Both the position numbers and the translations under genes were made by a program. A model generated the notes under the pieces. The model was given only the letters and a program-made list of their open reading frames with translations, was not told the DNA's origin and did no database searches. A DNA stretch of 32,000 nucleotides from Deinococcus radiodurans R1 = ATCC 13939 = DSM 20539 (GTDB taxonomy: Bacteria; Deinococcota; Deinococci; Deinococcales; Deinococcaceae): the NCBI RefSeq assembly GCF_000008565.1, contig NC_001264.1:127418-159417 (forward strand). The letters are read 5' to 3'. Positions 4,222-26,045 of this stretch are shown piece by piece (position 1 is the first letter of the stretch; each line of letters starts with the position of its first letter).

Positions 4222-4237
4222 GCTCTGTAGCGGCTGT

Positions 4238-4936
4238 TCAGGACGCCCCGCCGTCAAACCGCCGGAAATACCGCTCGGGCCCCGCCAGCGCCCGCGCCAC
4301 CATCTCCGGCGCAAGGACGAAGCCGTCCGGGTCGTCGGCAATCAGCCCCAGTTGTGTGCGGTGCGAGGCAATGGCGCGGGCTTTGGCATCTCGCCAGTCG
4401 CCTACCGCGAAGGTCAATTCCTCGACCTCGTCGGGGCGCGGCCAGTCGGCGTCGGCCCCGCGCTCGGGCAACCAGACGGCATATTCCAGGGCCAGGGTGT
4501 CGGAAGGAAGAACGCCGCGCAGCAGGTGCCAGGCGGCGCGGTGGTCAGGGTGCGGGTCGCGTTCCCAGGGCAGCAACACGGTGCCGGGCCGGGCCTGCGC
4601 GAATGCTTGCCGCACCTGGGCGCGGGCGGCAGCGGTGAGGTGCTCCCCCAGCGCCCCGTCAGGCAGCCCCAGCGCGACAGTTCGGGCCGGGGGCACACCC
4701 AGCACGCTCAGGCCCTCGCGCCACTCTGCCAGCCGCACAGCGCTCAGGCGGGGCCGGGGGTAAGCCTTTGAAGCGGGGTGGGAAAAGCCGCCGTCGGTCA
4801 GGAGGAGCGCCCAGACCTCGCGCCCCGCCTCCGCAAGTGCCGCCAGCAGTGCCCCGCAGCCGAGCGCCTCGTCGTCGGGGTGCGGGGCCACCACCCACAG
4901 CGGGCCGGACAGCGCGAGCGGGTCGAGAGGCGTCAT
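4238..4936 (-). CDS. PIG-L/LmbE-family N-acetylglucosaminyl deacetylase
   Basis: 232-aa ORF with the family signature VVAPHPDDEALGCG near the N-terminus, plus downstream HPDH. Its stop is 16 nt from the convergent helicase stop. Confidence 0.85.
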   Translation of the reverse strand: MTPLDPLALSGPLWVVAPHPDDEALGCGALLAALAEAGREVWALLLTDGGFSHPASKAYPRPRLSAVRLAEWREGLSVLGVPPARTVALGLPDGALGEHLTAAARAQVRQAFAQARPGTVLLPWERDPHPDHRAAWHLLRGVLPSDTLALEYAVWLPERGADADWPRPDEVEELTFAVGDWRDAKARAIASHRTQLGLIADDPDGFVLAPEMVARALAGPERYFRRFDGGAS

Positions 4937-4972
4937 CTCACTCCCAGTCCCACAGCTCGCTGTCCTCGGTGC

Positions 4973-5965
4973 TCAGCACGAAGCGGCCCAGGTCGAGGCG
5001 CGCCGCGTCGGGCGCAGGTGGCGCAGGTAAAGCCGCAGGTCGCGCAGCAGCCGCTCGGTGGGCGCGGGCGGCAGCAGGCCACGCGCCCCCACCGCCCGCT
5101 CCGCCGCCTCGCAGGCGAGCAGGCAGGCGTCCTCGGTCAGCACACGGGCGATGGAGACGTAAGCGAGGGAGCGTTCCAGGTCGCTGCCTTGCGCCGTGTC
5201 AAGCTGCCGCTGTGCCCGCAACACCGTCTGCCACGCGCCTTCCAGTCGGGCCGCGACCTCGGCGAAACGCAGGCGCTGCACGTCGTCGTGCTGCCGCCCC
5301 AGCCGCTGCAAGGTGGCCCGCGCCGCGTCCAGCACCGCGTCCGCCCCGCCGAGCTGCGCGGCGAGAAACCGCAGGGCGCCGCCGCTGAAGTCCGGTTGCC
5401 GGTAGTAGTCGCCCGGCTGACCAATGATGTCTTTCACGCCTACACGCAGCCCCCCGAGGTCCACCCGCTCGCTGACCGTTGCCCGCATCCCGGCAGGCTG
5501 CCAGAAAGACGGGTCGAAGCGCTCCGGCGCGGGCGCCCCCGGCAGCAGCACCATCACCCGGCCCGCGTCTGTCTCGGCGGGGCACAGTGCGCGGGTCACG
5601 TGCCCGGCGCCTGACGCGAAGGTCTTGTGGCCGCTCAGCACACCGCCGCTGCCTTCCGAATTGTGAGGCAGCCGCACCCCCGGCGCTTCCTCGGTGTTCC
5701 AGACGCCGAAGAGTTCCCCGGCCTGCGCGTCTGAGGCGGCCCGTTGCCGCTGCTCAGGCGTGCCGAAGCGCAGCACGAGGTCGAGGGCGTTGACGTGCCC
5801 CTCGTATAGCCGCGCAACCGGCAGGCTCAGCCGCCCCAGCCGCCGCAGCAGGGGCACACGGTCATGGGTGCCTAGCCCACCGCCGCCGAGGGCCGCAGGC
5901 AAAGTAGCCACCAGCAGACCAGCTTCCTGCAAAGCCGCAAACGCCGCCACTGGGAAAGCCCGCAC
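4973..5965 (-). CDS. acyl-CoA dehydrogenase-family protein, apparently frameshifted at both ends as sequenced
   Basis: The 330-aa ORF starts at GTG and reads FPVAAFAALQEAGLLVATLPAALGGGGLG...GHKTFASGAG...RDLRLYLR. It is about 50 aa shorter than the usual ~380 aa. N- and C-terminal continuations are visible in other frames (see findings). Confidence 0.7.
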   Translation of the reverse strand: MRAFPVAAFAALQEAGLLVATLPAALGGGGLGTHDRVPLLRRLGRLSLPVARLYEGHVNALDLVLRFGTPEQRQRAASDAQAGELFGVWNTEEAPGVRLPHNSEGSGGVLSGHKTFASGAGHVTRALCPAETDAGRVMVLLPGAPAPERFDPSFWQPAGMRATVSERVDLGGLRVGVKDIIGQPGDYYRQPDFSGGALRFLAAQLGGADAVLDAARATLQRLGRQHDDVQRLRFAEVAARLEGAWQTVLRAQRQLDTAQGSDLERSLAYVSIARVLTEDACLLACEAAERAVGARGLLPPAPTERLLRDLRLYLRHLRPTRRASTWAASC

Positions 5966-7275
5966 GGCGTCAGCTGCGGAGCTTCGGCCTGCACCACTGG
6001 CGCCAGAGCGTCGAGCCGGGCCAGTGCCTCGGCCAGCGTGCGCGGCGGTGTGGGGAAAGCCGCCTGCGTCTCAGCCACAGTCGCTTCGGCGCGGCCCCAG
6101 TCCCACGTTTGAGCCTGCCGCAGCGCTTCCCATAACACGGGGTCGGCGGGCCGCTCGCCCTGCGCGTCGGGGTAGTCCCACAGCCCGTTGTGGCAGTGGC
6201 GGTCGTCGTCCCAGCCGGGGTGGTTGACGATGGGATAGAGGCACACCCCCTCCACCGGCACCCCGTCGCGGCGGGCATCAAGCGCGGCCCCAGCCACGTA
6301 GCTCAGCCACTCGCCGCGCTCGGCGTTCTCGGTGCCGGTCTCCGCGATCAGCAGGGGCCGCCCGTAGCGCTGCGCTGCGGCGCTCAGCAGCTCGGGTAGG
6401 GGCCGGTGTGCCGGATGGCCCGGCAACAGCGTTTCGCGCGGTTCCTCGTTTTCGTGGTGGCGCCACTGGTTGTAGGGGTAATAATTGACGCCGATCACGT
6501 CCAAGTAGCGCTCATGGCCGCCGAGGTCGGGCCGCAGCCGCCCGCTCAGCATGTCGAGCGCCTCGAACTGCGCTTCGTGCAGCTCGCGGGCGCGCTTTTC
6601 CTGCCAGGGGCGCTCGGGGTGATGGTCCACCACGATCAGCGGCTCGGCGTGTACGAATCGCACCGCCGGGTCCATCTCCCGCGCCGCGTCCATGGCCGAG
6701 ATGGCCGCGCGCACGAGCTGCGCCTTGAGCTCCTCACCCCGGTCCCGGACAAAGGGGTTGAGGTAGCCCACCTCGCCCCCGCCCCACGCCAGAAAGGAAA
6801 TCTCGTTGACCGGGCACAGCCACAGCGTGCCGGGCGTCTCGGCCCGCAAAAACTGCGTGGCGGCGCGGGCAAAGCGGGCAAACACAGCCGGAAACTCTGG
6901 CGCGAAGAGGTCCACGAAATCGGGAAACCCGTAGTGCAGCAGGTCCCAGATGACGCTCACGCCCTGCTCGCGGGCCGCCCGGACCTGAGCACGGGCACTG
7001 GAAAAGTCGTATTCGCCGGGCGAGCGCTCGATCAGGTGCCAGCGCAGCCCGTCGCGGGCGCCCGCAATGCCCACCGCCCGCAGTCGGGCGTAGTCCTGCG
7101 CGGCGAAGTGGTCGTGCCGGGTGGCGTCAATCACGTCGATGCGGCGCCCCGAGGGCCGGCGGTGGCTGCTGCACTCGAAGCCGCCGAGAAAAAAGCTGGG
7201 AAAGAGCGGTGAGTCCGGCGCCGCCCCCCGGCCCTGGGCTGCCGACGCGGAAAGCTCCGGTGAAAAGGCACACAT
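5872..7275 (-). CDS. clan GH-A (GH1-like) TIM-barrel glycoside hydrolase-like protein
   Basis: 467-aa ORF with N-terminal FFLGGFECSS. Candidate acid/base Glu in LCPVNEISF and candidate nucleophile Glu in LLIAETGTEN. The last ~35 aa (Cys/Trp/Leu/Arg-rich) overlap the next gene and look out of frame. Confidence 0.7.
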   Translation of the reverse strand: MCAFSPELSASAAQGRGAAPDSPLFPSFFLGGFECSSHRRPSGRRIDVIDATRHDHFAAQDYARLRAVGIAGARDGLRWHLIERSPGEYDFSSARAQVRAAREQGVSVIWDLLHYGFPDFVDLFAPEFPAVFARFARAATQFLRAETPGTLWLCPVNEISFLAWGGGEVGYLNPFVRDRGEELKAQLVRAAISAMDAAREMDPAVRFVHAEPLIVVDHHPERPWQEKRARELHEAQFEALDMLSGRLRPDLGGHERYLDVIGVNYYPYNQWRHHENEEPRETLLPGHPAHRPLPELLSAAAQRYGRPLLIAETGTENAERGEWLSYVAGAALDARRDGVPVEGVCLYPIVNHPGWDDDRHCHNGLWDYPDAQGERPADPVLWEALRQAQTWDWGRAEATVAETQAAFPTPPRTLAEALARLDALAPVVQAEAPQLTPCGLSQWRRLRLCRKLVCWWLLCLRPSAAVG

Positions 7276-7328
7276 GCGCCCTACCCTGCCACGCGCCTGT
7301 CAGCCGTTCGGCATGCCAGTAGACAAAC

Positions 7329-7478
7329 TAGAGCATTTGACAAAAAGATGGCACAGCTTTTTGGCGAGCGGAGCGAGTACAAAATACCGAGCAGAACGGA
7401 CTTGCAAAGCTGCGAAGCAGAGAATGGAGCGGGTGGCGGTGCTGTTCCGACGCACGCGTAATTCGGAGAACTGCTCTA
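7329..7478. repeat. ~150-bp AT-richer intergenic element bounded by inverted termini TAGAGCA / TGCTCTA (small noncoding repeat-like)
   Basis: TAGAGCATTT at 7329- and its near-complement AACTGCTCTA ending at 7478. GC is visibly lower than in the flanks, and there is no credible ORF. Deinococcus genomes are known to carry small noncoding repeats, but the family cannot be assigned here. Confidence 0.35.
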
Positions 7479-7564
7479 AATGACGTGAGTGCCGCCTGAG
7501 CAGGCCACAGCACAAGCAAAAAAGAAGCCGAGCACGCGGCCCAGCCTCCTTCCTCACCTCGACT

Positions 7565-8467
7565 TCAGCGCTTCGCCAGCCAGGACTTCGCCACCGCCGC
7601 CGCGCTCTCGCCGCCCACGGCGATGCGGCCATTGAGCTGCGCGAGGGTGCCTGCGTCGAGCTTGGCGAAAATCGGGTTCATGATCTTGGCGATGTCGGGG
7701 TACTTCTGCGCCACGCTCTGGCGCACGGTCAGCGCGGGCTGGTACACGGCCACCGCGCCCTTGGGGTCGCTGAGTGCCACCAGCCCCAGCGCACCGATGG
7801 CGCCGTCGGTCCCGTAGGCCATCGCCGCGTTCACGCCGCTGGTGCCCTGCGCCGCCGCCGTTTCGGTCTGGGTGGTGTTGCCGCCAGGGACGATGACGAG
7901 TTGCGCGGGCGAGAGCTTGAAGCCGTAGGCCTTTTCAAACGCCTTGAGCGCGTCGTCACGGTCCACGAATTCCTGGCTGGCAGCCAGCTTGACCGGCTTG
8001 CCCGAGTTCACGTAGCGGGCGAAATCGGCCATCGTCTTCAGGTTGTTCGCCTGCGCCAGCTTGCTCGGCACCGCCACCGCCCAGGTGTTGTTGGCGGGGG
8101 CGCGCGACAGCCACACGACCTTGTTCACCTTGAGGTCGAGCGCCTTGACGGTGGTGTAGGCCTTCACCGCGTCGCGGCTCACCTTGGGATCGATCTTTTG
8201 CCCGGCCTCGGTCAGCAGGTAAATGGCGCTGCCGGTGTACTCGGGGTACAGGTCGATTTCGCCTTGCAGCAGCGCCTTGCGGACCACGTTGGTGGCACCG
8301 GTAGAGCACTTGTCGTTCACCTTGAAACCACCGCGCTCCAGCGCCTGCTTGGTGATCTGGCACAGCAAGGCGCCCTCGGTGTCGATCTTGCTGCCCACCG
8401 TAACGGTTTTCTGGGCGAGCGCGGTGGGCAGGAGCAACAGGGCGGACAGGGTCAGCAGTCGGTTCAT
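7565..8467 (-). CDS. glycine betaine/choline-type ABC transporter substrate-binding protein (OpuAC/OpuBC family)
   Basis: The track ORF is over-extended to 8845. The real start is ATG 8467-8465, after GGAGG. Signal peptide MNRLLTLSALLLLPTALA, then VTVGSKIDTEGALL...LLQGEIDLYPEYTGSA, typical of the family. Confidence 0.85.
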   Translation of the reverse strand: MNRLLTLSALLLLPTALAQKTVTVGSKIDTEGALLCQITKQALERGGFKVNDKCSTGATNVVRKALLQGEIDLYPEYTGSAIYLLTEAGQKIDPKVSRDAVKAYTTVKALDLKVNKVVWLSRAPANNTWAVAVPSKLAQANNLKTMADFARYVNSGKPVKLAASQEFVDRDDALKAFEKAYGFKLSPAQLVIVPGGNTTQTETAAAQGTSGVNAAMAYGTDGAIGALGLVALSDPKGAVAVYQPALTVRQSVAQKYPDIAKIMNPIFAKLDAGTLAQLNGRIAVGGESAAAVAKSWLAKR

Positions 8468-8636
8468 GGAAGCCTCCAAAAGGCGGGGGAAAAAGCGAAA
8501 ACATTGGACCGGCAGAGCTTTATCCGACCTCTGCCGACCCGGCGTCAACCTCTCCACCCTACCGCCCGGCGCCCGGCGACTGTGTTCGACGCCGCACACT
8601 GCCAGCGTCAGATAAAGGCGCGGCCAAGAGTCCCTC

Positions 8637-12440: not shown

Positions 12441-12487
12441 TTTCAGTGTAGAGCGTCTTTGCCCCGCTTATGCCCCGGTCCTCACAT

Positions 12488-13306
12488 TCAGGGCCGGCCC
12501 AGACGGCGCCGCGCCCCCACGCTCAGCGCCGCGCACGCGAGCGGCAGGGCGCTGCGGGTGCCGCCCAGCACCGCACTCAGCGCGAGGCCGCCCAGCGCCA
12601 GTTGCCGGGACCGCTGTACCCTCTCAGTGGAGATGGTCTGGTCGCCCCGGTCGGTTTCGGTGGTCACGTCCTCGGGTTCAAGCAGGCTGGGGGCCAGCAG
12701 CAGAGCGCCCGCGATGGCCGCGCTGCCGAGCGACTGTCGCCCGCCTTCCCGCGTCGCTGCGATGGTCGGCAACAGCGCCGCGAGCAGGGCTGCCGGACCA
12801 CTGACCGCGCTCTGGGGCGCCAGGTCGTCGCCCTGCTGACTCGACAGGGCCAGCGCCGCGCCGGGCAGCAAGGCCGCTGCTTTTTGCCCCGCTCCGGCAC
12901 ACATGGCCGCCGCCGCGCCGAGTGCCGCTTCGTCGCCTGCTGTGGCCGCCGCGCCGGTGGTCGCACTCAGGGTCCGCACGCTGCTCAGCGCGGTAAACGC
13001 CGCGAGCACCTCGCTCAGCACCGCCGCGTCGCTGTTGTCCTCGCTCAGCAGCGAAAGCGCCAGGGTGAGCGGCAGCGCGGCGTTGGCGGTGACGGCATGG
13101 TCCGGGTCGAGTTCCCGCGCGCATGCCCAGGCCGCAAAGGCACTCAGGCCCGTGCCCGCGCTCCCCACCCACGAGCGCCCCCGCAGCCGCCCGAGCGCCA
13201 CGCCGCCCAGCAGTCCCAGCATCGCCCAGCGGTTGGACGGGTACGAGAGGTCAATGGTGCGCGGCAAAGCGGCGGGCAACAGTCCCGATGAAGATGCAGA
13301 AGTCAT
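12488..13306 (-). CDS. hypothetical Ala/Leu/Gly-rich membrane protein
   Basis: 272-aa ORF with strongly GC-biased third codon positions and several hydrophobic stretches. The opposite-strand ORFs are Arg/Pro junk. No motif recognised. It lies 47 nt upstream of the receiver gene on the same strand. Confidence 0.5.
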   Translation of the reverse strand: MTSASSSGLLPAALPRTIDLSYPSNRWAMLGLLGGVALGRLRGRSWVGSAGTGLSAFAAWACARELDPDHAVTANAALPLTLALSLLSEDNSDAAVLSEVLAAFTALSSVRTLSATTGAAATAGDEAALGAAAAMCAGAGQKAAALLPGAALALSSQQGDDLAPQSAVSGPAALLAALLPTIAATREGGRQSLGSAAIAGALLLAPSLLEPEDVTTETDRGDQTISTERVQRSRQLALGGLALSAVLGGTRSALPLACAALSVGARRRLGRP

Positions 13307-13453
13307 GTGCTCAGCGTAGAAGCTGCGATTCGCTTTTGGGGACAGGCCAGCTCAAGACAACGTTGGGGTTTGCGTCGGAAATGGAGGCGAGGACGAGCTC
13401 CTTTTCACGGATCAAAGCTGCTTTTCCAGCTTGTTTAATACCTTCGGACCATC

Positions 13454-13481
13454 AAAGAAAAAACCGCGTGCAGGACGCGGT
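13454..13481 (-). terminator. rho-independent terminator of the 144-aa gene
   Basis: The minus strand reads ACCGCGT-CCTGC-ACGCGGT followed by TTTTTTCTTT. Stem at 13463-13469 / 13475-13481, with the A-tract at 13454-13463 on the plus strand. Confidence 0.75.
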
Positions 13482-13509
13482 ATCATGTGCTCTTTGTAAC
13501 GACTCGGGC

Positions 13510-13944
13510 TTACTTCTTTTTCAGGCTCTTCTGCTTGCGCGAGTTGCCGAGCTGTTGCCCACGGTTGTATTTGGATTCCATGCTGCGGCGGGTTTCTTCC
13601 ACCAGCGCCTTGAAATCGACTTCGCCCGCTTCCACTGCTTCCAGGCTGAGCACCACTTTGGAGTTGCCGCCGCGAGTATTGATCTTGCCCAGGTCTTCGC
13701 TGGCCTGCTTGATCCACTTGTCGCTCTTGGGCGTCACTTGAAACACCATGTCGCGGGTATCACGTTCATAGCTGCCTTCAGCGCCGCGGCGATGGTACTG
13801 CTTGGGCAGGGTAAAACGTTCCTTGAGTTCGATGGCGTCAATATCACCCTCACGCACAGCGTTGCGAAACATCTTCACAAAGCGGTCGCTCTGCTGAGGG
13901 TTTTCAAGTTCCATCACAACTTCACTGAGTTTCCTGAATTCCAT
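13510..13944 (-). CDS. hypothetical 144-aa highly charged protein with a basic C-terminal tail
   Basis: Clean ORF MEFRKLSEVVMELENPQQSD...NSRKQKSLKKK in a visibly lower-GC stretch, followed by a strong terminator. A TACATT -10-like hexamer sits 6 nt upstream of the ATG. No family recognised. Confidence 0.7.
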   Translation of the reverse strand: MEFRKLSEVVMELENPQQSDRFVKMFRNAVREGDIDAIELKERFTLPKQYHRRGAEGSYERDTRDMVFQVTPKSDKWIKQASEDLGKINTRGGNSKVVLSLEAVEAGEVDFKALVEETRRSMESKYNRGQQLGNSRKQKSLKKK

Positions 13945-14073
13945 GCGGGCAATGTAACATGCGCCAGCTCCGTTCGTGTCATTGGGCTGGCCTTAAGATG
14001 TCAGGGGCTGGCACGCTGTCAAAAGCTCTCTACTTTTGTTACCCGGCGAATCTTTTTTGCCCTCGATTAATGA

Positions 14074-14101
14074 CAAAACGAAAATGGCAGCTTCGTTGCC
14101 A
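14074..14101 (-). terminator. weak terminator-like hairpin just after the TetR stop
   Basis: The minus strand reads TGGCA-ACGAAGC-TGCCA followed by TTTTCGTTTTG. The stem is only 5 bp. Confidence 0.35.
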
Positions 14102-14105
14102 AAGT

Positions 14106-14780
14106 TCAATCGAGAGACGCTTGCTTTTCCTGCTCCTGAATCTGTGTTTTGATGCCGGCCAGCATCAGTTCGAGGGCCACCTCAAAAAAATCGTCCTCGT
14201 TTTCTGAGGCGGCGGGCATCGGCAAACTCAGCGCGAGGGGAAAGCGCTCGGGCTGCCGCTCGGCGAAGGCTCGGCGCTGGGCGAAGGCGCTGGGGGCGAA
14301 GTTGCCGTTGAGTTCGGCGTAGCAGAAGCCGACCATGAAAATCACCAGAACACTGCCGTACTTGGTGATGACCTCTTCGGGCAGCCCGACCTGACGCAGC
14401 AGCCGGTACAGCGACTCGTACACGTCGAGTTCCTCTCTGCTCACGCGGTGGCCGCGAAAGTAATAGCCGATAAAACTGGCGTGCCGCACCATGCTGCGCC
14501 TCAGGCTGTGGGCCAGCCGGCTGAAGCGCTCCTGCCAGCTGCCTTCGTTGAGGTCGGGCAGCTCCAGCTCACGCAAAATCTCGCTGTAGACGCCCTGGAG
14601 CAGGTCTTCTTTGGTGGGAAAGTAGTGGTAGAGGCTCTTGGGGCTGACGCCCAGTTCGGCAGCCAGTTTGCGGATGCTCAGGCCGTCGAGCCCGTCGCGG
14701 TGCAGCGTATCCAGAGCCTGACGAGTGATTTTCTCGGCGCTCAGCAAGGGGGCGCCGGCAGGAGGACGTGCCATGTCCAC
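14106..14780 (-). CDS. TetR-family transcriptional regulator
   Basis: The N-terminal HTH ITRQALDTLHRDGLDGLSIRKLAAELGVSPKSLYHYFPTKEDLL is a canonical TetR_N domain. The gene is divergent from the 3-hydroxyacyl-CoA dehydrogenase gene. Confidence 0.9.
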   Translation of the reverse strand: MDMARPPAGAPLLSAEKITRQALDTLHRDGLDGLSIRKLAAELGVSPKSLYHYFPTKEDLLQGVYSEILRELELPDLNEGSWQERFSRLAHSLRRSMVRHASFIGYYFRGHRVSREELDVYESLYRLLRQVGLPEEVITKYGSVLVIFMVGFCYAELNGNFAPSAFAQRRAFAERQPERFPLALSLPMPAASENEDDFFEVALELMLAGIKTQIQEQEKQASLD

Positions 14781-14789
14781 TAATTTACC

Positions 14790-14798
14790 ACACAGTGT
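14790..14798. promoter_or_regulatory. palindrome ACAC-A-GTGT, candidate TetR operator half of a pair
   Basis: ACACAGTGT lies 10 nt upstream of the TetR start codon. A near-identical ACACGGTGT occurs at 14925-14933. Confidence 0.3.
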
Positions 14799-14886
14799 TG
14801 AATAAATCTTAACCCATCCTTACCTTAACAGCAGAAGAGGCGTCTGGGACGCTGAATTCGGCAAATTCGGGCAAGAATGCGCCGCC

Positions 14887-14933
14887 TTGACGCGCCTCCG
14901 AGTGTGGAGTAGGTTGGGTTTGTTACACGGTGT
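14887..14933 (+). promoter_or_regulatory. sigma70-like promoter TTGACG-17nt-TAGGTT followed by palindrome ACAC-G-GTGT
   Basis: TTGACG at 14887-14892, a 17-nt spacer, then TAGGTT at 14910-14915. ACACGGTGT (14925-14933) sits just downstream, where a repressor would block initiation. Confidence 0.3.
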
Positions 14934-14965
14934 GTGGTTAGCGAAACTGCGGCCCACACCCAGTC

Positions 14966-15001
14966 GTTCACCGGCTGCTTTCGTGGAGCCGCCCGGTGAA
15001 C
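14966..15001 (+). other. perfect 9-bp stem hairpin in the putative 5' leader
   Basis: GTTCACCGG (14966-14974) pairs with CCGGTGAAC (14993-15001) across an 18-nt loop, about 40 nt upstream of the start codon at 15040. Confidence 0.3.
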
Positions 15002-15039
15002 TTGCCTCCCTTCCACGTGGTGCAAGACAGGAGAGCAGC

Positions 15040-15930
15040 ATGAGCATCAAGACAGTTACGGTGTGCGGCAGCGGCGTTCTCGGTTCGCAAATCGCTTTTC
15101 AGACCGCTTTTCACGGCTTCGACGTTCACCTCTACGACATCAACGACGCCGCCATCGCCAAGGCCCGCGAAACGCTCGGCAAGTTGCAGGCCCGCTACCA
15201 GCAGGACCTGAAGGTGGACGCCCAGCAGACCGGCGACGCCTTTGCGCGCATCAGCTTTTTCACCGACATTGCCGAAGCCGTCAAGGGTGTGGACCTCGTT
15301 ATCGAAGCCATTCCTGAGAACATGGACATCAAGCGCAAGTTCTACAACCAGCTAGGTGAGGTGGCTGACCCGAACACCATCTTCGCCACCAACTCCAGCA
15401 CCTTGCTGCCCAGCCAGTTCATGGAAGAAACCGGGCGCCCCGAGAAGTTCCTGGCGCTGCACTTCGCCAACGAAATCTGGAAGTTCAACACCGCCGAAAT
15501 CATGCGCACGCCCAGGACCGATGACGCCGTGTTCGACACGGTGGTGCAGTTCGCCAAGGACATCGGCATGGTGGCGCTGCCCATGTACAAGGAGCAGGCC
15601 GGCTACATCCTGAATACGCTGCTGGTGCCGCTGCTGGGCGCCGCGCTGGAACTGGTCGTCAAGGGCATCGCCGACCCGCAGACGGTGGACAAGACCTGGA
15701 TGATCGCGACCGGCGCGCCGCGTGGGCCGTTCGCCTTCCTGGACGTGATCGGCTTGACCACGCCCTACAACATCAACATGGCGAGCGCCGAGACCAATCC
15801 CGGCAGCGCCGCCGCCGCCAAATACATCAAGGAAAACTACATCGACAAGGGCAAATTGGGCACCGCGACCGGCGAGGGCTTTTACAAGTACCCCAATCCG
15901 GCCTTCGAGAGCGCCGACTTCCTGAAATAA
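15040..15930 (+). CDS. 3-hydroxyacyl-CoA (3-hydroxybutyryl-CoA) dehydrogenase
   Basis: The track ORF is over-extended to 14887. ATG 15040 follows AGGAGAG. Rossmann motif VTVCGSGVLGSQIA, then VIEAIPENMDIKRKF, HFANEIW and the C-terminal dimerisation domain GPFAFLDVIGL. Confidence 0.9.
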   Translation: MSIKTVTVCGSGVLGSQIAFQTAFHGFDVHLYDINDAAIAKARETLGKLQARYQQDLKVDAQQTGDAFARISFFTDIAEAVKGVDLVIEAIPENMDIKRKFYNQLGEVADPNTIFATNSSTLLPSQFMEETGRPEKFLALHFANEIWKFNTAEIMRTPRTDDAVFDTVVQFAKDIGMVALPMYKEQAGYILNTLLVPLLGAALELVVKGIADPQTVDKTWMIATGAPRGPFAFLDVIGLTTPYNINMASAETNPGSAAAAKYIKENYIDKGKLGTATGEGFYKYPNPAFESADFLK

Positions 15931-15953
15931 CCCCTGCGTTTCCTACAAGAAGT

Positions 15954-15973
15954 CCAAGTCACACCCAAGTCAC
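15954..15973 (+). promoter_or_regulatory. direct repeat CCAAGTCAC x2 with an 11-bp period, plus a partial third copy
   Basis: CCAAGTCAC at 15954-15962 and 15965-15973, then CCAAG at 15974. This is 60-80 nt upstream of the ATG at 16033 and is followed by the GC hairpin GGGCG..CGCCC (about 15989-16009). Confidence 0.3.
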
Positions 15974-16032
15974 CCAAGGGTAGGTTGAGGGCGCGGAACG
16001 TCTCCGCCCCTCACTGCCAAAGGAGATTGATC

Positions 16033-16764
16033 ATGAGTCAGAACCAGAAATCCAGTGATACCGGTGACAAATCGGCCAGCGAACGCTTGGCGGCGCTGAA
16101 GCTGGCGCTCCAGAACGACCTGCGCGACGCGCCCATCATGGCGAAAGTGGCGCTGGAAAACCTGTTCAACCGCGACGATTCCGATTCCGGACCCGCGGTG
16201 AAGTCGGCAGGTCGCGTGGGCCGTCAGCAGGGCAAGGTCTCCGAGCTGACCGCCATGGCCGACCTGAAACCCGGCGGCGCGGATCACCTGCGGCGCATTC
16301 TGGAACTGATCGGCGGCAACATGTCGGGCGCTCGCAAGGTCGGCACCGTGCATGACATGCGCTTCGTGATTTTCGACGACGACAAGAAAATCCTGTTCTG
16401 CACCGCCTACGACGGCGACTGGGACACCTACATCGAGGACTTTGCTACCAAGATTCCCGACCTGATGGACCTGCTGTTCGCCAACGTGGAAGGCTGGCCC
16501 GGCATCCACTCGCCCGAAGTCAAGGACTTTATCGCCAGCCACCAGCTCACCGCCGACGGCTGGTACGTGGACGCGCCCTACCTGACGGTGGTCGAAACCC
16601 GCCGCGTACAGGAAAACCAGCAGGCGCTCGAAACCTTTATGGACGAGTACAGCAAGACGGCCAAGCCGGTAGACGACATGAGCGAAGCCGAACTGCGCGC
16701 AAGCCAGAAGAAGCTTCAGGAGTTCTTGCAGAAGGTAGGGACCGCCAGCAGCGGGGTTGCCTGA
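16033..16764 (+). CDS. conserved-looking hypothetical protein (243 aa), coupled to the DyP gene
   Basis: ATG 16033 follows AAAGGAG. The core is VHDMRFVIFDDDKKILFCTAYDGDWDTYIEDFATKIPDLMDLLF. Its stop (16762-16764) is 1 nt from the DyP ATG (16766). No family name recalled with confidence. Confidence 0.75.
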   Translation: MSQNQKSSDTGDKSASERLAALKLALQNDLRDAPIMAKVALENLFNRDDSDSGPAVKSAGRVGRQQGKVSELTAMADLKPGGADHLRRILELIGGNMSGARKVGTVHDMRFVIFDDDKKILFCTAYDGDWDTYIEDFATKIPDLMDLLFANVEGWPGIHSPEVKDFIASHQLTADGWYVDAPYLTVVETRRVQENQQALETFMDEYSKTAKPVDDMSEAELRASQKKLQEFLQKVGTASSGVA

Positions 16765-16765
16765 G

Positions 16766-18139
16766 ATGACGCTGTTCAAAAAGCTGCGTGAGCTGGTTCA
16801 TCACAACGACAAGATCGACCTCGATCTGGACGATATTCAGGCGACCGTCTTGCGCGAGCGGCCCGAGCCCTACTACGGCACCCATGCCATGGTGCGCTTC
16901 GACACGGCGGAAGGCGGGCGCGAGCTCCTGAAGCGCCTGCTGCCGCACATCGCCTCCGCCGAGAAGTGGTGGGACGTGAAATATGCCTGGACCGCCGCCG
17001 CCATCAGCTACGAAGGGCTGAAAAAGCTGGGCGTGCCGCAAGACTCGCTCGACAGCTTTCCCGAGTCGTTCAAAGTGGGAATGGCAGGCCGCGCTGAGCA
17101 CCTCTTCGATGTGGGCGAGAACGATCCCAAGCACTGGGAAAAGCCCTTCGGCACCGGACAGGTTCACCTCGCGCTGACCATTTTCGCTGAGAACGAAGAG
17201 AACTGGCAAAAGGCCCTGGTCATCGCCGAGCACGAGCTTGAGGCGACCAAAGGTGTGACCTTGCTGATGCGCGAGGATTTCGGCGCGCAGCCCGACAGCC
17301 GCAACTCGCTGGGCTACAAGGACATGATCAGCAACCCGGCCATCGAGGGCAGCGGCATCAAACCATTCCCTGGGCAGGGGCCGGCCATCAAACCCGGCGA
17401 GTTCGTTCTAGGTTATCCCGGCGAAGCGGGCGTACCTTTGGGGATGCCCAAGCCCGAGGTGCTGGGGAAAAACGGCACCTTCGTGGCGCTGCGCAAGTAC
17501 CACACCAACGCGGGCAGCTTCAACCGTTACCTCAAGGAAAATGCCGAGTACACCGGCGGCGACGCCGAGCTCTTGGCCGCCAAACTGGTCGGACGCTGGC
17601 GCAGCGGCGCGCCCCTGACGTTGGCTCCCAAGGAAGACGACCCCGAGCTGGGCCACGACCCCAACCGCAACAACGACTTCACCTACAAAAACGACCCGGA
17701 AGGGTTGGAAGTGCCGCTGGGCTCGCATATCCGCCGCATGAACCCGCGTGACACCAAGCTGGAACTGCTCACCGACGTGAACATCCACCGGATTATTCGC
17801 CGCGCCACGGCGTATGGCCCCGCCTATGACCCCAAGGCCGACAGCCTGGCGGAAGACAAGGTCGAACGTGGCCTGTACTTCATCTTCATCAGCGCCAAGG
17901 CGATGGACACCACCGAGTTCCTGCAAAAGGAATGGATCAACAAGGCGAACTTCATCGGACAGGGCAGCGAGCGCGACCCGATTGTGGGCCTCCAGGACGA
18001 AGACCTGACCTTCACCCTGCCCAAAGAGCCGGTGCGCCAGCGCCTGCGCGGGATGGACACGTTCAACGTGCTGCGCGGCGGCGAGTACCTCTTCATGCCC
18101 AGCCTCTCGGCGCTGAAGTGGCTGAGTGAACTGAAGTAA
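16766..18139 (+). CDS. DyP-type heme peroxidase
   Basis: N-terminal LDDIQATVL. GYKDMISNP matches the GxxDG-type distal Asp motif. GSHIRRMNPRD carries the proximal His, IIRRATAYG the distal Arg, and RGLYFIFISA..EFLQKEWIN is present. The track start at TTG 16757 is less likely than the ATG at 16766. Confidence 0.9.
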   Translation: MTLFKKLRELVHHNDKIDLDLDDIQATVLRERPEPYYGTHAMVRFDTAEGGRELLKRLLPHIASAEKWWDVKYAWTAAAISYEGLKKLGVPQDSLDSFPESFKVGMAGRAEHLFDVGENDPKHWEKPFGTGQVHLALTIFAENEENWQKALVIAEHELEATKGVTLLMREDFGAQPDSRNSLGYKDMISNPAIEGSGIKPFPGQGPAIKPGEFVLGYPGEAGVPLGMPKPEVLGKNGTFVALRKYHTNAGSFNRYLKENAEYTGGDAELLAAKLVGRWRSGAPLTLAPKEDDPELGHDPNRNNDFTYKNDPEGLEVPLGSHIRRMNPRDTKLELLTDVNIHRIIRRATAYGPAYDPKADSLAEDKVERGLYFIFISAKAMDTTEFLQKEWINKANFIGQGSERDPIVGLQDEDLTFTLPKEPVRQRLRGMDTFNVLRGGEYLFMPSLSALKWLSELK

Positions 18140-18180
18140 AGCCGCTGAAGGTTCAAGCCCATTCAACAACAGGAGGAAGT

Positions 18181-19266
18181 ATGAATTACGTCAAATATAC
18201 CCCGAACATCGAAGTCAAGCAGCCCAACGAGGACGAGCAGATCGACAAGATTGTCGAGATGATGCACGCGGCCAACGTCAAGGCCTTCGACAAGCACCGC
18301 CACGGCATCCGCGACGCGCACGCCAAGCAGCACGGCACGGTGGTCGGCACGCTGGAAATTCCCGAACTGCCTGAGCACCTCGCCCAGGGCCTGTTCGCCA
18401 AGCCCGGCAGCTACCCGGTGGTCATCCGGTTTTCCAGCGCGCCCGGCGAACTCAAGGACGACAGCGTGCCGGTACCGCACGGCATGGCCGTCAAGGTGAT
18501 CGGCGTGCCCGGCAAAAAGATTTTGCCCGACAAGCAGGACGAAGTGACGCAGGACTTCCTGATGGTGACCATGCCGGTCATTCCCTTCGGTGATGTCGAG
18601 CAGTACCTGAAGATGCAGAACGTGGTCGCGTTGCAAGACAGCACCTCGGAAGAAGGGCAGCGGGCCTTTGCGGCGCTCGCCCGTGGCGGGCAGAAGGTGC
18701 TGGGTCTGCTCGGCATCAGCGACCCCACGCTGGACGGCATCGCTGCCGAGAACGAGCACCTGCTCGGCCAGACCTACCACACCATGGCGGCCATTCGTTA
18801 CGGCGACTACATCGCCAAAATCAGCGCCGCGCCGCTCTCGCCCGAAGTGAAGGCGCTCGAAGGTCAGATTCTGGACACCAAGAAGAGCCCTTCGGCCCAG
18901 CGTGACGCTCTGGTAGACTTTTTCCACAAGCACGGCGCCGAGTACCAGCTGCGCGCCCAGCTGTGCACTGACCTCGAAAAGATGCCGATTGAAGACGCCT
19001 CGGTCGAGTGGGACGAAAAGCTCTCGCCCCAGCAGCCGATTGGCCGCCTCATCATTCCGCAGCAGGAAGCCTACAGCCCGGCCCGGCGCGTCTTTTCCGA
19101 CGACAAGCTGGAGTTCAACCCCTGGCACGCCCTGCCCGAGCACCAGCCGCTCGGCTCCATCATGCGCGTGCGTATCAAGGCCTACGAATCCTCCACGGCC
19201 TTCCGTCACGCCATGAACGTGCAGCCGCGCGTGGAACCCAGGGACATCAGCGAAATTCCGCAGTAA
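18181..19266 (+). CDS. catalase-related mini-hemoprotein (~40 kDa, catalase core only)
   Basis: 361 aa, with AGGAGGA upstream. FDKHRHGIRDAHAKQHG aligns with the catalase distal-His motif (FDRERIPERVVHAKG). RIKAYESSTAFRH aligns with the proximal-Tyr motif (R..sY.dt...R). Confidence 0.85.
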   Translation: MNYVKYTPNIEVKQPNEDEQIDKIVEMMHAANVKAFDKHRHGIRDAHAKQHGTVVGTLEIPELPEHLAQGLFAKPGSYPVVIRFSSAPGELKDDSVPVPHGMAVKVIGVPGKKILPDKQDEVTQDFLMVTMPVIPFGDVEQYLKMQNVVALQDSTSEEGQRAFAALARGGQKVLGLLGISDPTLDGIAAENEHLLGQTYHTMAAIRYGDYIAKISAAPLSPEVKALEGQILDTKKSPSAQRDALVDFFHKHGAEYQLRAQLCTDLEKMPIEDASVEWDEKLSPQQPIGRLIIPQQEAYSPARRVFSDDKLEFNPWHALPEHQPLGSIMRVRIKAYESSTAFRHAMNVQPRVEPRDISEIPQ

Positions 19267-19276
19267 GTCCTGGTTA

Positions 19277-19326
19277 AAGAAGGGCGGGCCACTGAAGTTA
19301 TCCGGTGGCCCGCCCTCTTCTTTTTT
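19277..19326. terminator. bidirectional rho-independent terminator between convergent operons
   Basis: An 11-bp GC stem, GGGCGGGCCAC (19282-19292) with GTGGCCCGCCC (19305-19315), and a 12-nt loop. TCTTCTTTTTT follows on the plus strand, and the minus-strand side is also T-rich. Confidence 0.75.
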
Positions 19327-19330
19327 ACAT

Positions 19331-22093
<2,763 letters not shown>

Positions 22094-22101
<8 letters not shown>

Positions 22102-23008
22102 GGTCGAACACCTCGCACAGCGTCTCCATCACCAGCCGCGCCATTAGCAGTTCGCTGCGGCCCGTCGGGTCGAGGTTGGGGGCGAGTTCGACCAAATCGA
22201 GGCCCACCACCGTATTATTCGCCGCCGCTGCCGCCAGAATCTTCATGCCCTGCGCGTAGGTCAGGCCGTCGGGCTCGGGGCTGGACGTGCCGGGAATCAC
22301 GGCGGGGTCGAAGCCGTCCACGTCCACCGAGAAATACACGTTCTGGCCGCGTGGCAGCTGGGCCAGCACGCCCGCGAGGTCGGCGGTCACGTCGTCCATC
22401 GGAATGATTGTGTGGCCCCGCGCCCGCGCCGCCGCCACCGCCTCCGGGTCGAAGCGCAGCCCGCGCAGGCCGACGGTGGTGATGTGGACGAGGTTGGGCA
22501 GGGCTTCGCAGGCGCGGCGAAAGGGGCTGGAGTTGCTCCATTTCGTGTCGTTGCGGGTGTCGGTGAAGTCGAGGTGCGCGTCGAGCTGCACGACGTGAAG
22601 GTCGGGCACGTCGGCAAAAGCGCGCAGCAGCGGATAACTCACCGAGTGGTCGCCGCCGAGAAACACCGGCACCCGGCAGCGCCCCCGCACCTGCCGCGCC
22701 GCCTCGGTGATGCGGTCGTGGGCGAGTTGGGGTTCAAGCGAGGGCAAAATCACGTCGCCCGCATCGGCAAAAGTCACGCCCTGCAAGCGGGTTTTGCCGT
22801 CCAGACCGGTGAAGGGGGGCACGCTGCGCAGACTCGCCTCCCGCAGCGCACGCGGGGCGAAACGGGCGCCGGGGCGAAAGCCGAGGGCGATGTCGAAGGG
22901 GACGCCGAGGGCGGCCACGTCCGCCTGCCAGTCGCCGTCCGGTTGCACCAGCGGGGCGCGGGCGAAGGTCGGAATGCCGCCGTAGGGCAGGTGGGCCGGC
23001 CCGCTCAT
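22094..23008 (-). CDS. hutG: formimidoylglutamase (ureohydrolase/arginase family)
   Basis: Mn-binding motifs FLGGDHSVSYP, VVQLDAHLDF and SVDVDGFDPAV. The formimidoylglutamase assignment, rather than agmatinase, rests on its position inside the hut operon. Confidence 0.8.
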
Positions 23009-24368
23009 GGGGTCACGCCCGTTTCGACCCAGCCGCGCAGGGTGTTCCAGGCCTGCGCCGTCTGCCCAGGCGTAAAGCCGCAGTGCGCCGTCGCTTGAAA
23101 GCCCAGCGCTTTGGTCGGAAAGCGGGTCGTGGCGGTGGGCACCAGTGCCTGCGCGAGCTGGGCGCTGTTGCCCGCCGACGCCACTATGGAACGCAGCCAG
23201 CCCTCATGCTCGGTGGGCACCAGTGGGTCGTAAGCGTTATGGAGGGTGTACAGCTTGCCGGTGAAGTGGCCGCTCGGCGTCCAGCGTTCCTGCACCCGTG
23301 CCAGGGCCTGTGGGTCGGCGGCGTACCGCTGAATCTTGCGGTTCAGCTCAGCATTTTCGGCGTCGCTGAGCAGCGGGCTGTGGTAGACGGTCGCGCGGTT
23401 GTCCACGAACACGCCGCCCGCCTGCGCCCAGAAATCCTCGGCGCCCGTGAGCTGGGTCAGCAGCACCGAGCCGAGGGTGCCGATGTCGCTCTGCGCCTGC
23501 ACGCCCGGCACCGCGCTCGCCGTGCGCCGGATGATCAGGTCGGCCTCGCCGCCGGGCCGCAGCACCGCCGCCGAGTAGAGCCGCAGCAGCGTCAGGCCAA
23601 TCTTGTTGACGCTGCCCCCCGCGTTGCGCGTCACGTCCTTCACGCCGGGCAACTCGTAGGCGCTGCCCGCTGCGAACACGTTGTAGAGCGCCCGAATGTG
23701 CGTGGTGTAGTTCAGCTCCGGCACCCAGCCGCCCACCACGCCGCAGGCTGCCAGCGCTCCGGCGAACTGCTGTGGGTGGCGTTCCAGCGCGAGCTGCGCG
23801 ATGCTGCCGCCCTCGGAAGCGCCCGCCACATACGCCCGCCGCGCGCCCAGTGCCGTCAGCAGCCGCGAGAGGGCCGCCGTGCGCTCGATGCCGCTTTCCA
23901 CCGCGAAGCCGCGCTTGTCGTAGGCGCTCTGACCCACCGCCAGCCCCTGCGCGTAGGCAGCGGGCAGCAGTCCGCCCGTCTCGTCGTTCGCCACCGGGTC
24001 GGCGGGGATGTGGTCGGCCTCCGGTGAGACAAAGGTGTAGCCGTGCGCGAACACCAGCGATTCCTGATTCCAGTGCGCCGGAAAGCGCAGGACGAAGGGC
24101 GCGCCCGCCAGTTGACCACTCGCCAGCGTGCCGCCGTCGGCCTGGGGCTTGAGCTGAAGGCCGGTCACCGCCTGCGTACCCCGCAGTCCCGCGAAAGCCT
24201 GTTGCAGCCGGACAAATTCCGGGCCGGGCTGGGCGGCTTGCTGGGTCGGGGCACAGCCAGAGAGCAGCAGGGTCAGGCCGAGGGCAGCGCGCAGCGACAT
24301 GCGCCGAGGAGAGCATGTCGGCGTGGCGACAGGGTGAGGCCGGGGGTCAGCCACGTGGCCCCATTCAC

Positions 24369-24372
<4 letters not shown>
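23005..24372 (-). CDS. exported lipoprotein, alpha/beta-hydrolase-like (GxSxG)
   Basis: Lipobox LLLSGC after [10 protein letters not shown]. Nucleophile elbow [15 protein letters not shown] 24372 overlaps the hutU stop (GTGA) and gives an RR-containing leader. The alternative start is ATG 24300. ATGA overlap with the hutG start at 23005-23008. Confidence 0.7.

Positions 24373-26045
<1,673 letters not shown>

Follow-up and report, generated by a model that had tools for sequence, protein, structure and literature searches.

On chromosome II, Deinococcus radiodurans R1 carries a cluster of five genes, DR_A0142 to DR_A0146, which was assigned through the identity of its DyP peroxidase and the literature. 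It lies within the 32,000-nucleotide stretch of DNA analysed here (contig NC_001264.1, positions 127,418 to 159,417), referred to as the window. The core of this cluster is a cytoplasmic haem module of three proteins, namely the uncharacterised protein UNK (DR_A0144), the class V DyP peroxidase DrDyP (DR_A0145) and the catalase-core-only haem protein mCAT (DR_A0146), and this module is shown here to be inherited jointly in several phyla. To the question of what bacterial DyP peroxidases do in the cell, the locus offers a concrete and testable answer. Judging from gene content and gene context, the chances are about even that DR_A0143-A0146 constitute a horizontally acquired, TetR-controlled operon whose haem module would act on fatty-acid hydroperoxides or oxygenated fatty acids rather than on H2O2. 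The conserved triad, the UNK family with its putative ABM-like core, the neighbouring lipid enzymes and a fusion to an alpha-dioxygenase are new here, and the literature searched yielded no description of the triad or of a link between DyP, mini-catalase and oleate hydratase.

Conservation of the UNK-DyP-mCAT triad

The genes and the elements recognised around them are as follows (positions in the window):

14106..14780, minus strand: TetR-family repressor DR_A0142 (Pfam TetR_N 47.6 bits, TetR_C_1 152.5 bits; probable ATG at 14774)
14924..14936, no strand assigned: candidate TetR operator, inverted repeat CACAC-N3-GTGTG with one mismatch, in the TetR-HAD intergenic region
15040..15930, plus strand: 3-hydroxyacyl-CoA dehydrogenase family enzyme (HAD) DR_A0143 (3HCDH_N 183.9 bits, 3HCDH 80.2 bits; ATG after GGAGAG)
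16033..16764, plus strand: UNK DR_A0144, 243 amino acids (no Pfam, NCBIfam or PDB sequence match)
16766..18139, plus strand: DrDyP DR_A0145, class V (C-type) DyP haem peroxidase (PDB 8RE2/8RE3, 1022 bits)
18181..19266, plus strand: mCAT DR_A0146, catalase-core-only haem protein of 361 amino acids (predicted fold; sub-threshold Pfam Catalase match)
19281..19326, plus strand: intrinsic terminator closing the four-gene unit (14-pair stem, 11 of the pairs being G-C, with a T run behind it)

A first-pass annotation of the window had described a TetR gene divergent from four co-directional genes that end at one strong terminator. This layout proved correct in every particular, with all five genes present where they had been placed. 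The plus-strand genes HAD, UNK, DyP and mCAT are separated by 102 (HAD-UNK), 1 (UNK-DyP) and 41 (DyP-mCAT) nucleotides. Apart from the hairpin at 19281-19316 (-34.7 kcal/mol, z = -6.35 as compared to shuffled sequences), neither the stretch they occupy nor the sequence behind it holds a terminator-like site on their strand. DR_A0142 possesses the N-terminal helix-turn-helix and the ligand-binding C-terminal domain of the TetR family. HAD combines the NAD-binding 3HCDH_N domain with the C-terminal 3HCDH domain and scores 454 bits against NCBIfam NF006143 (cut-off 312), which places it in the 3-hydroxyacyl-CoA dehydrogenase family. The published numbering of DrDyP (460 amino acids) begins at a TTG at position 16757, that is inside the 3' end of the UNK gene; the ATG at 16766, located 1 nucleotide past the UNK stop codon, is the more likely start and would give a protein of 457 amino acids.

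Conservation was assessed by a UNK-anchored search of species-representative genomes, which confirmed 384 stretches; 80 loci were fetched and inspected. Gene calls in these loci are crude and relied on clustering of open reading frames (ORFs) with a filter for GC content at third codon positions (GC3), which replaced a choice by length alone that had picked antisense ORFs in high-GC loci. Wherever the contig extends far enough, UNK, DyP and mCAT are present together in all 80 loci. UNK is located directly upstream of DyP in 79 of them, the contig ending first in the remaining one, and a median of 2 nucleotides separates the UNK stop from the DyP start. The triad occurs in alpha- and beta-proteobacteria (among them Massilia, Duganella, Sphingomonadales, Rhizobiales, Caulobacterales and Paracoccus), in Micrococcus, in a Chloroflexota metagenome-assembled genome and in three Deinococcus species, and UNK is encoded on 37 plasmids. 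The usual gene order is mCAT-UNK-DyP, with UNK-DyP-mCAT found in Deinococcus and Rhodococcus. Together with a Rhodococcus plasmid, which carries the triad with a UNK at 34% identity, these loci show that hypothetical protein, DyP and mini-catalase are strongly conserved as a set, which is the favourable outcome of a test named in the first-pass annotation. In a Nostoc plasmid version, the third gene (346 amino acids) is not detectably catalase-like. A natural fusion protein of Sulfitobacter, described below, moreover joins UNK and DyP in a single chain. We conclude with high confidence that UNK, DyP and mCAT form a functional unit, in which UNK is the dedicated partner of DyP.

Among 121 Deinococcaceae genomes searched, three contain UNK. 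The GC content of the block from 13000 to 19330 is about 59-62% as compared to about 67-70% in its flanks and about 68% in the whole window, and an insertion sequence (IS) transposase adjoins the cluster in D. xinjiangensis. The low GC content, the IS transposase and the presence in so few genomes mark the cluster as horizontally acquired in Deinococcus, and the block looks like a single acquired island. It also takes in two ORFs without a Pfam family to the left of the TetR gene (12470-13291 and 13123-14070), and the latter has no counterpart beside the triad in the other loci inspected.

The haem proteins and the UNK family

DR_A0146 is listed in PMC6300522, which also notes DR_A0145 and DR_A0146 as neighbouring genes, as a third, 'eukaryotic-type' catalase; yet that paper, citing Jeong et al. 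2016, reports it to be without catalase activity, an outcome in favour of the first-pass annotation. The Pfam Catalase family (PF00199) matches residues 28-107 only, at 20.5 bits and thus below the cut-off of 25, and NCBIfam gave no match for mCAT. A full-length match above the gathering score, by which a KatE-type monofunctional haem catalase is recognised, is accordingly lacking. The AlphaFold model (predicted local distance difference test, pLDDT, 85) reveals a catalase core. Its top VIA-align chains are MAP-2744c (3E4W, Z 23.7) and coral allene oxide synthase (3DY5, Z 23.5; 1U5U, Z 23.3); true catalases score Z 23.0 or below and are thereby effectively tied with the mini-proteins, which align further into the N-terminus of mCAT than true catalases do. 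The target-normalised Foldseek TM-score against 3E4W is 0.70. With a beta-barrel core, a length of 361 amino acids and neither C-terminal nor wrapping extensions, mCAT has the fold of a catalase-related mini-haemoprotein, for which a size range of about 300-370 amino acids was used. The residues R44, A46, H47, S85, R331, Y335 and R342 are invariant among 40 homologues and include those required for haem ligation, i.e. distal His47, proximal Tyr335 and Arg331, whereas the position of the distal Asn is occupied by Thr in D. radiodurans and by N, S or T across the family. By sequence, the resemblance of the family to catalases is weak and confined to the distal-His region, and no sequence-level match to MAP-2744c or coral allene oxide synthase was detected.

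The DyP of the window is the enzyme of PDB entries 8RE2/8RE3, from which it differs at two of 445 aligned residues, one being the engineered M190G exchange. It exhibits the fold of class V (C/D) DyPs, in which haem b is held by two ferredoxin-like domains, with a His on its proximal side and an Asp and an Arg on its distal side. The proximal His324, the distal Asp189 and Arg348 are conserved, and D189, H324, R348 and F375 are invariant among 60 DyPs of triad loci. The GXXDG fingerprint is replaced by GYKDM, in which the catalytic Asp is kept. Among the 60 triad DyPs the fifth position of the motif is S in 49, N in six, M in three and G in two cases; because the deviation GxxD[S/N/M/G] thus runs through the whole family, the 'unusual' Met190 of DrDyP (PMC10820274) represents just one local variant of it. 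The haem of DrDyP is six-coordinate and low-spin at pH 7.5 and cannot bind H2O2, the enzyme being active with H2O2 only below pH 4, and the authors of the structure ask which physiological substrate or event activates it (PMC10820274).

These properties bear on a rival reading of the cluster, namely that a peroxidase and a weak catalase under stress control provide an ordinary back-up defence against H2O2 or oxidative stress. Both folds are indeed peroxide-handling haem folds, both DR_A0145 and DR_A0146 become more abundant after exposure to ultraviolet C radiation and vacuum (PMC5731708), and the dra0146 transcript is two-fold lower in a crp (dr0997) mutant (PMC4868304). However, this is hard to reconcile with a mini-catalase reported to be inactive as a catalase and a DyP that does not bind H2O2 at neutral pH. 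Moreover, the regulator belongs to the TetR family and is not OxyR or PerR, and neither a strictly conserved third protein nor lipid enzymes as neighbours would be expected for H2O2 scavenging. The presence of the cluster in only three of 121 Deinococcaceae genomes also speaks against such a role, which we regard as quite improbable. Being an import of low GC content with so sporadic a distribution, the cluster does not represent a general resistance trait, and the relevance to oxidative-stress resistance that had been suggested at first is weak.

UNK has no sequence match in Pfam, NCBIfam or the PDB. Its 1381 homologues are all 'hypothetical' where they are named, and none has a Pfam family; a profile search retrieved 1622 representatives of 50%-identity clusters, and likewise none of ten sampled representatives has a Pfam family. 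ESM Atlas returned unnamed clusters only. In the AlphaFold model (pLDDT 72), a beta-alpha-beta-beta-beta-alpha core (residues 66-183) is preceded by a long N-terminal helix and followed by further helices towards the C-terminus. VIA-align relates this core, at Z 5-7.7, to ABM/SchA-like, AbxO, TcmI, mutarotase and ActVA-Orf6 barrels (WhiE-ORFI 7.7, AbxO 7.4, TcmI 6.3), which are weak matches given that Z values below 8 are common for unrelated barrels. Foldseek found no match in the PDB at E <= 0.001 (best E 0.012). The model suggests that the core of UNK might be an ABM-like dimeric alpha+beta barrel. Some homologues (P0131, P0139 and P0145) carry two tandem UNK cores in one protein of 314-432 amino acids, and such duplicated forms fit a barrel built of two such domains. 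A detached DyP domain was considered and dismissed, as hhalign assigned a probability of 0.2% and no relation to DyP domains was detectable. Residues 58-73 are predicted to be disordered and are nevertheless nearly invariant, and this segment would fit a docking element. In proteobacterial UNK proteins, a variable linker leads to a conserved P-x-G-V-D-Y tail at the C-terminus, and deinococcal and actinobacterial ones end in G-x-x-x-x-G-V/T-A/V; this tail may likewise serve as a docking peptide.

The fold class of ABM proteins includes haem-degrading members, of which IsdG is one. This could place the module in haem or iron handling, where DyP would be a deferrochelatase of the EfeB/YfeX kind, UNK a haem degrader or chaperone resembling IsdG, and mCAT a haem carrier, and DR_A0145 has been put in COG2837, the EfeB category (PMC6300522). 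However, UNK is without detectable sequence similarity to IsdG, DrDyP belongs to class V and not to the EfeB class and retains a stable haem in crystals (PMC10820274), and the neighbours that recur beside the triad in the loci inspected include neither an iron or haem transporter nor a Fur box or a siderophore gene. A haem-handling role is therefore very improbable.

The same barrel matches could also hint at small molecules of another kind. In this scenario, the module would oxidise or detoxify aromatic, quinone or polyketide-like molecules. UNK would be a cofactor-free enzyme of the ABM/cyclase type, and the haem proteins would attack the same compound as oxidases or peroxidases. In addition to the likeness of the UNK core to ABM/SchA-like proteins, the AbxO decarboxylase, the TcmI cyclase and ActVA-Orf6, two distant loci favour it. 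A plasmid of Sulfitobacter sp. SK025 encodes a protein of 1620 amino acids (3691-8553 of the locus), annotated as 'cytochrome P450', which is in fact a fusion of a P450, a 320-residue spacer, a UNK-like part and a DyP; its P450 domain resembles the macrolide hydroxylase EryK most, and the closest solved relative of its DyP domain is DrDyP. In Terrarubrum, a catalase of 323 amino acids, a SnoaL-like protein, UNK and DyP stand in a row, in which the SnoaL-like 'ester cyclase' lies between catalase and UNK, and annotated RND-adaptor subunits and an ABC permease follow. (Similar TPR proteins precede the Sulfitobacter fusion and the Terrarubrum row.) Finally, DyPs are known to oxidise anthraquinones and phenolics (introduction of PMC10820274). 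Against this stand the weakness of the UNK fold matches and the absence of polyketide synthase or aromatic-catabolism genes recurring beside the triad in the loci inspected. The neighbours that do recur are fatty-acid enzymes, and a dioxygenase fusion points to fatty-acid hydroperoxides (see below). We thus consider a role in aromatic or polyketide-like chemistry unlikely.

Fatty-acid enzymes beside the triad

Inspection of large ORFs beside mCAT genes uncovered, on the metagenome contig JAESGJ010000382.1 (6186-9092 of the locus), an ORF of 968 amino acids that joins a fatty-acid alpha-dioxygenase to a domain of the mCAT family. The dioxygenase part is of the plant type (PDB 4HHR, E 3.5e-112; PF03098, 354 bits), and the mCAT domain shares 42% identity with DR_A0146 from end to end, including the haem ligands. 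Alpha-dioxygenases make 2-hydroperoxy fatty acids. We regard this fusion as the most direct evidence on function, which would place an mCAT-like protein next to the source of a fatty-acid hydroperoxide. An ORF of 429 amino acids overlaps the start of the fusion, and genes for a subtilase, for an enoyl-CoA hydratase and for a regulator of the LuxR/AAA/TPR type are found close by. A further metagenome locus (L082, 6936-9086) contains an ORF of 716 amino acids, in which an N-terminal part of 355 amino acids without Pfam or PDB match precedes a mini-catalase domain that is 56% identical to DR_A0146.

Genes of fatty-acid metabolism also recur around the triad itself. On a mobile alpha-proteobacterial island, a TetR-thioesterase-HAD-MCRA operon, whose first gene overlaps the thioesterase gene and lies about 160 nucleotides from mCAT, is divergent from mCAT-UNK-DyP, MCRA being an oleate hydratase. 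The locus of D. taklimakanensis comprises HAD, MCRA and TetR in addition to the triad, TetR-MCRA is divergent from the triad in Paracoccus panacisoli, and Sphingomonas aquatilis has the order mCAT-UNK-DyP-thioesterase-TetR. In Alicycliphilus, a different HAD of 517 amino acids is located directly upstream of the triad, so two types of HAD neighbour it. Thioesterases of the 4HBT family are either divergent from the triad or follow directly after DyP, TetR genes of several subtypes accompany it, and the three MCRA lineages found beside it are only 43-53% identical to one another. Haem enzymes in the company of an oxygenase or hydratase, as would be expected of an oxylipin cluster, are thus found in relatives, i.e. 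at loci L001 and L011, on the mobile island and in the alpha-dioxygenase fusion.

The mobile island (e.g. locus L013, 2445-12771, L060 and about 20 more) is nearly unchanged in Sphingobium, Brevundimonas, Rhizobium, Caulobacter, Shinella, Bosea, Novosphingobium and Devosia, and it also occurs on plasmids. It contains a copper-type heavy-metal P-type ATPase, MCRA, HAD, thioesterase, TetR, mCAT, UNK, DyP and a broken MFS gene. In almost every one of these genera MCRA keeps 98-100% identity, as compared to mostly 89-97% for HAD, DyP and mCAT, and these differing identities hint that segments of the island may have different histories.

DR_A0142 shares 75% identity with the TetR that adjoins the D. 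taklimakanensis triad. The palindrome CACAC-N3-GTGTG, allowing one mismatch, is found once in the 32-kb window, in the spacer between TetR and HAD; about one match in the window is expected by chance. In D. taklimakanensis, both exact matches are located in the MCRA-TetR and TetR-UNK intergenic regions. The motif is a candidate for the TetR operator, and its occurrence before HAD, MCRA and UNK suggests that these genes might belong to a single regulon. We propose with moderate confidence that the substrates of the triad are fatty-acid hydroperoxides or related oxygenated fatty acids rather than H2O2, in which case HAD and TetR would serve the same pathway.

Several observations weigh against a role in lipid-hydroperoxide metabolism. 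MCRA was not found in the D. radiodurans genome, and the window holds no dioxygenase, lipoxygenase or hydratase, so that the D. radiodurans locus by itself does not resemble an oxylipin cluster. Any hydroperoxide would consequently need an extracellular source or would have to arise by non-enzymatic oxidation. (A genome search with the lipoxygenase family PF00305 found no match in D. radiodurans but none in the control genomes either, and is thus uninformative.) Of 26 MCRA-bearing loci, 23 are copies of the one mobile island, with MCRA proteins 93.5-100% identical, which leaves few independent associations with MCRA. In 28 of the 80 triad loci, the triad stands without a recognisable lipid gene nearby, and in distant relatives the SnoaL-like cyclase, the macrolide-hydroxylase-like P450 and efflux genes point to aromatic or polyketide-like substrates. 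Finally, DyP and/or UNK are adjacent in 30 of 80 metagenome loci anchored on mCAT, and about 50 are devoid of both, some with ample flank. The mCAT family is therefore broader than the triad: UNK and DyP always come with mCAT, whereas the mCAT family also lives alone, and the neighbours of its stand-alone genes (molybdopterin oxidoreductase, AI-2E transporter, WD40 and others) are heterogeneous and share no common theme. The first-pass suggestion of lipid-hydroperoxide processing is thus supported, though indirectly: it gains from the MCRA, HAD, thioesterase and TetR neighbours and from the alpha-dioxygenase fusion, loses from the absence of MCRA in D. radiodurans, and stays a reading of gene context.

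Downstream of the cluster, a convergent hut operon (19331-26045, minus strand) encodes hutH, a hutI-like amidohydrolase, the arginase-family hutG and hutU. Between hutG and hutU lies an ORF of 455 amino acids (23005-24372), which has faint alpha/beta-hydrolase matches only.

Proposed function and comparison with known systems

How could the proteins of the operon work together on oxidised fatty acids? In our model, mCAT with its Tyr-ligated haem would rearrange, cleave or reduce a fatty-acid hydroperoxide, a type of reaction known from catalase-related enzymes such as coral allene oxide synthase. DyP would need its translationally coupled partner UNK in order to work, and would either take the organic hydroperoxide as oxidant or oxidise the products. 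HAD may then oxidise the resulting hydroxy-acyl intermediates, and TetR may free the operon upon binding of a ligand of the fatty acid or acyl-CoA type. A bolder version, which we put forward tentatively and consider doubtful as it stands, is that UNK is the missing obligate subunit of this class of DyP. Bound to the enzyme, with which it forms one fused chain in some bacteria, UNK would displace the hydroxide ligand or deliver the substrate. DyP would then be active at neutral pH with a fatty-acid hydroperoxide and would form, together with the mini-catalase, a previously undescribed three-protein complex for lipid-peroxide or oxylipin metabolism.

If UNK does act as such a subunit, the DyPs of triad loci would gain a natural function, and a first function would be assigned to an uncharacterised family, whose clusters at 50% identity number more than 1600 by their representatives. 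Since D. radiodurans is genetically tractable and a crystal structure of its DyP is at hand, the hypothesis is directly testable. The partner DR_A0144 is strictly co-inherited with DrDyP, and the context points to oxidised fatty acids. Accounts of Deinococcus stress resistance commonly list DR_A0146 as a 'third catalase' and DR_A0145 as an EfeB-type peroxidase, and both entries are corrected here.

In the structural work on DrDyP (PMC10820274) the enzyme was studied alone, and the upstream partner gene, the triad and the lipid-enzyme neighbours were not considered. Parallels to the module are found among other catalase-related proteins. Like mCAT, MAP-2744c of M. avium paratuberculosis (PDB 3E4W/3E4Y) and coral allene oxide synthase (PDB 1U5U, 3DY5) consist of the catalase core only, and they share with it the distal His, the proximal Tyr and the Arg. 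Unlike in the coral enzyme and in catalases, where the residue before the distal His is Thr and Val, respectively, this residue is Ala in mCAT. Moreover, coral allene oxide synthase is fused to a lipoxygenase, whereas mCAT is partnered with DyP and UNK. A second parallel is provided by pathways built on MCRA oleate hydratases, which detoxify fatty acids or lead to hydroxy fatty acids, as MCRA, a dehydrogenase and TetR also adjoin the triad in D. taklimakanensis and on the mobile island, and TetR-MCRA does so in Paracoccus; haem peroxidases are, to our knowledge, part of no known oleate hydratase pathway. The alpha-dioxygenase/mCAT fusion, in turn, recalls both the coral lipoxygenase-allene oxide synthase and a pair from Nostoc punctiforme, in which a linoleate 10S-dioxygenase goes with a catalase-related 10S-hydroperoxide lyase (PMC9579011, citing Brash et al. 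2014): in each case an oxygenase makes, or would make, a hydroperoxide that a catalase-fold haem protein converts. The fused alpha-dioxygenase and the Nostoc enzyme even belong to the same cyclooxygenase-like superfamily. Unlike these oxylipin pairs, the D. radiodurans operon comes without a dioxygenase and adds DyP and UNK, two proteins that we know from no described oxylipin pathway.

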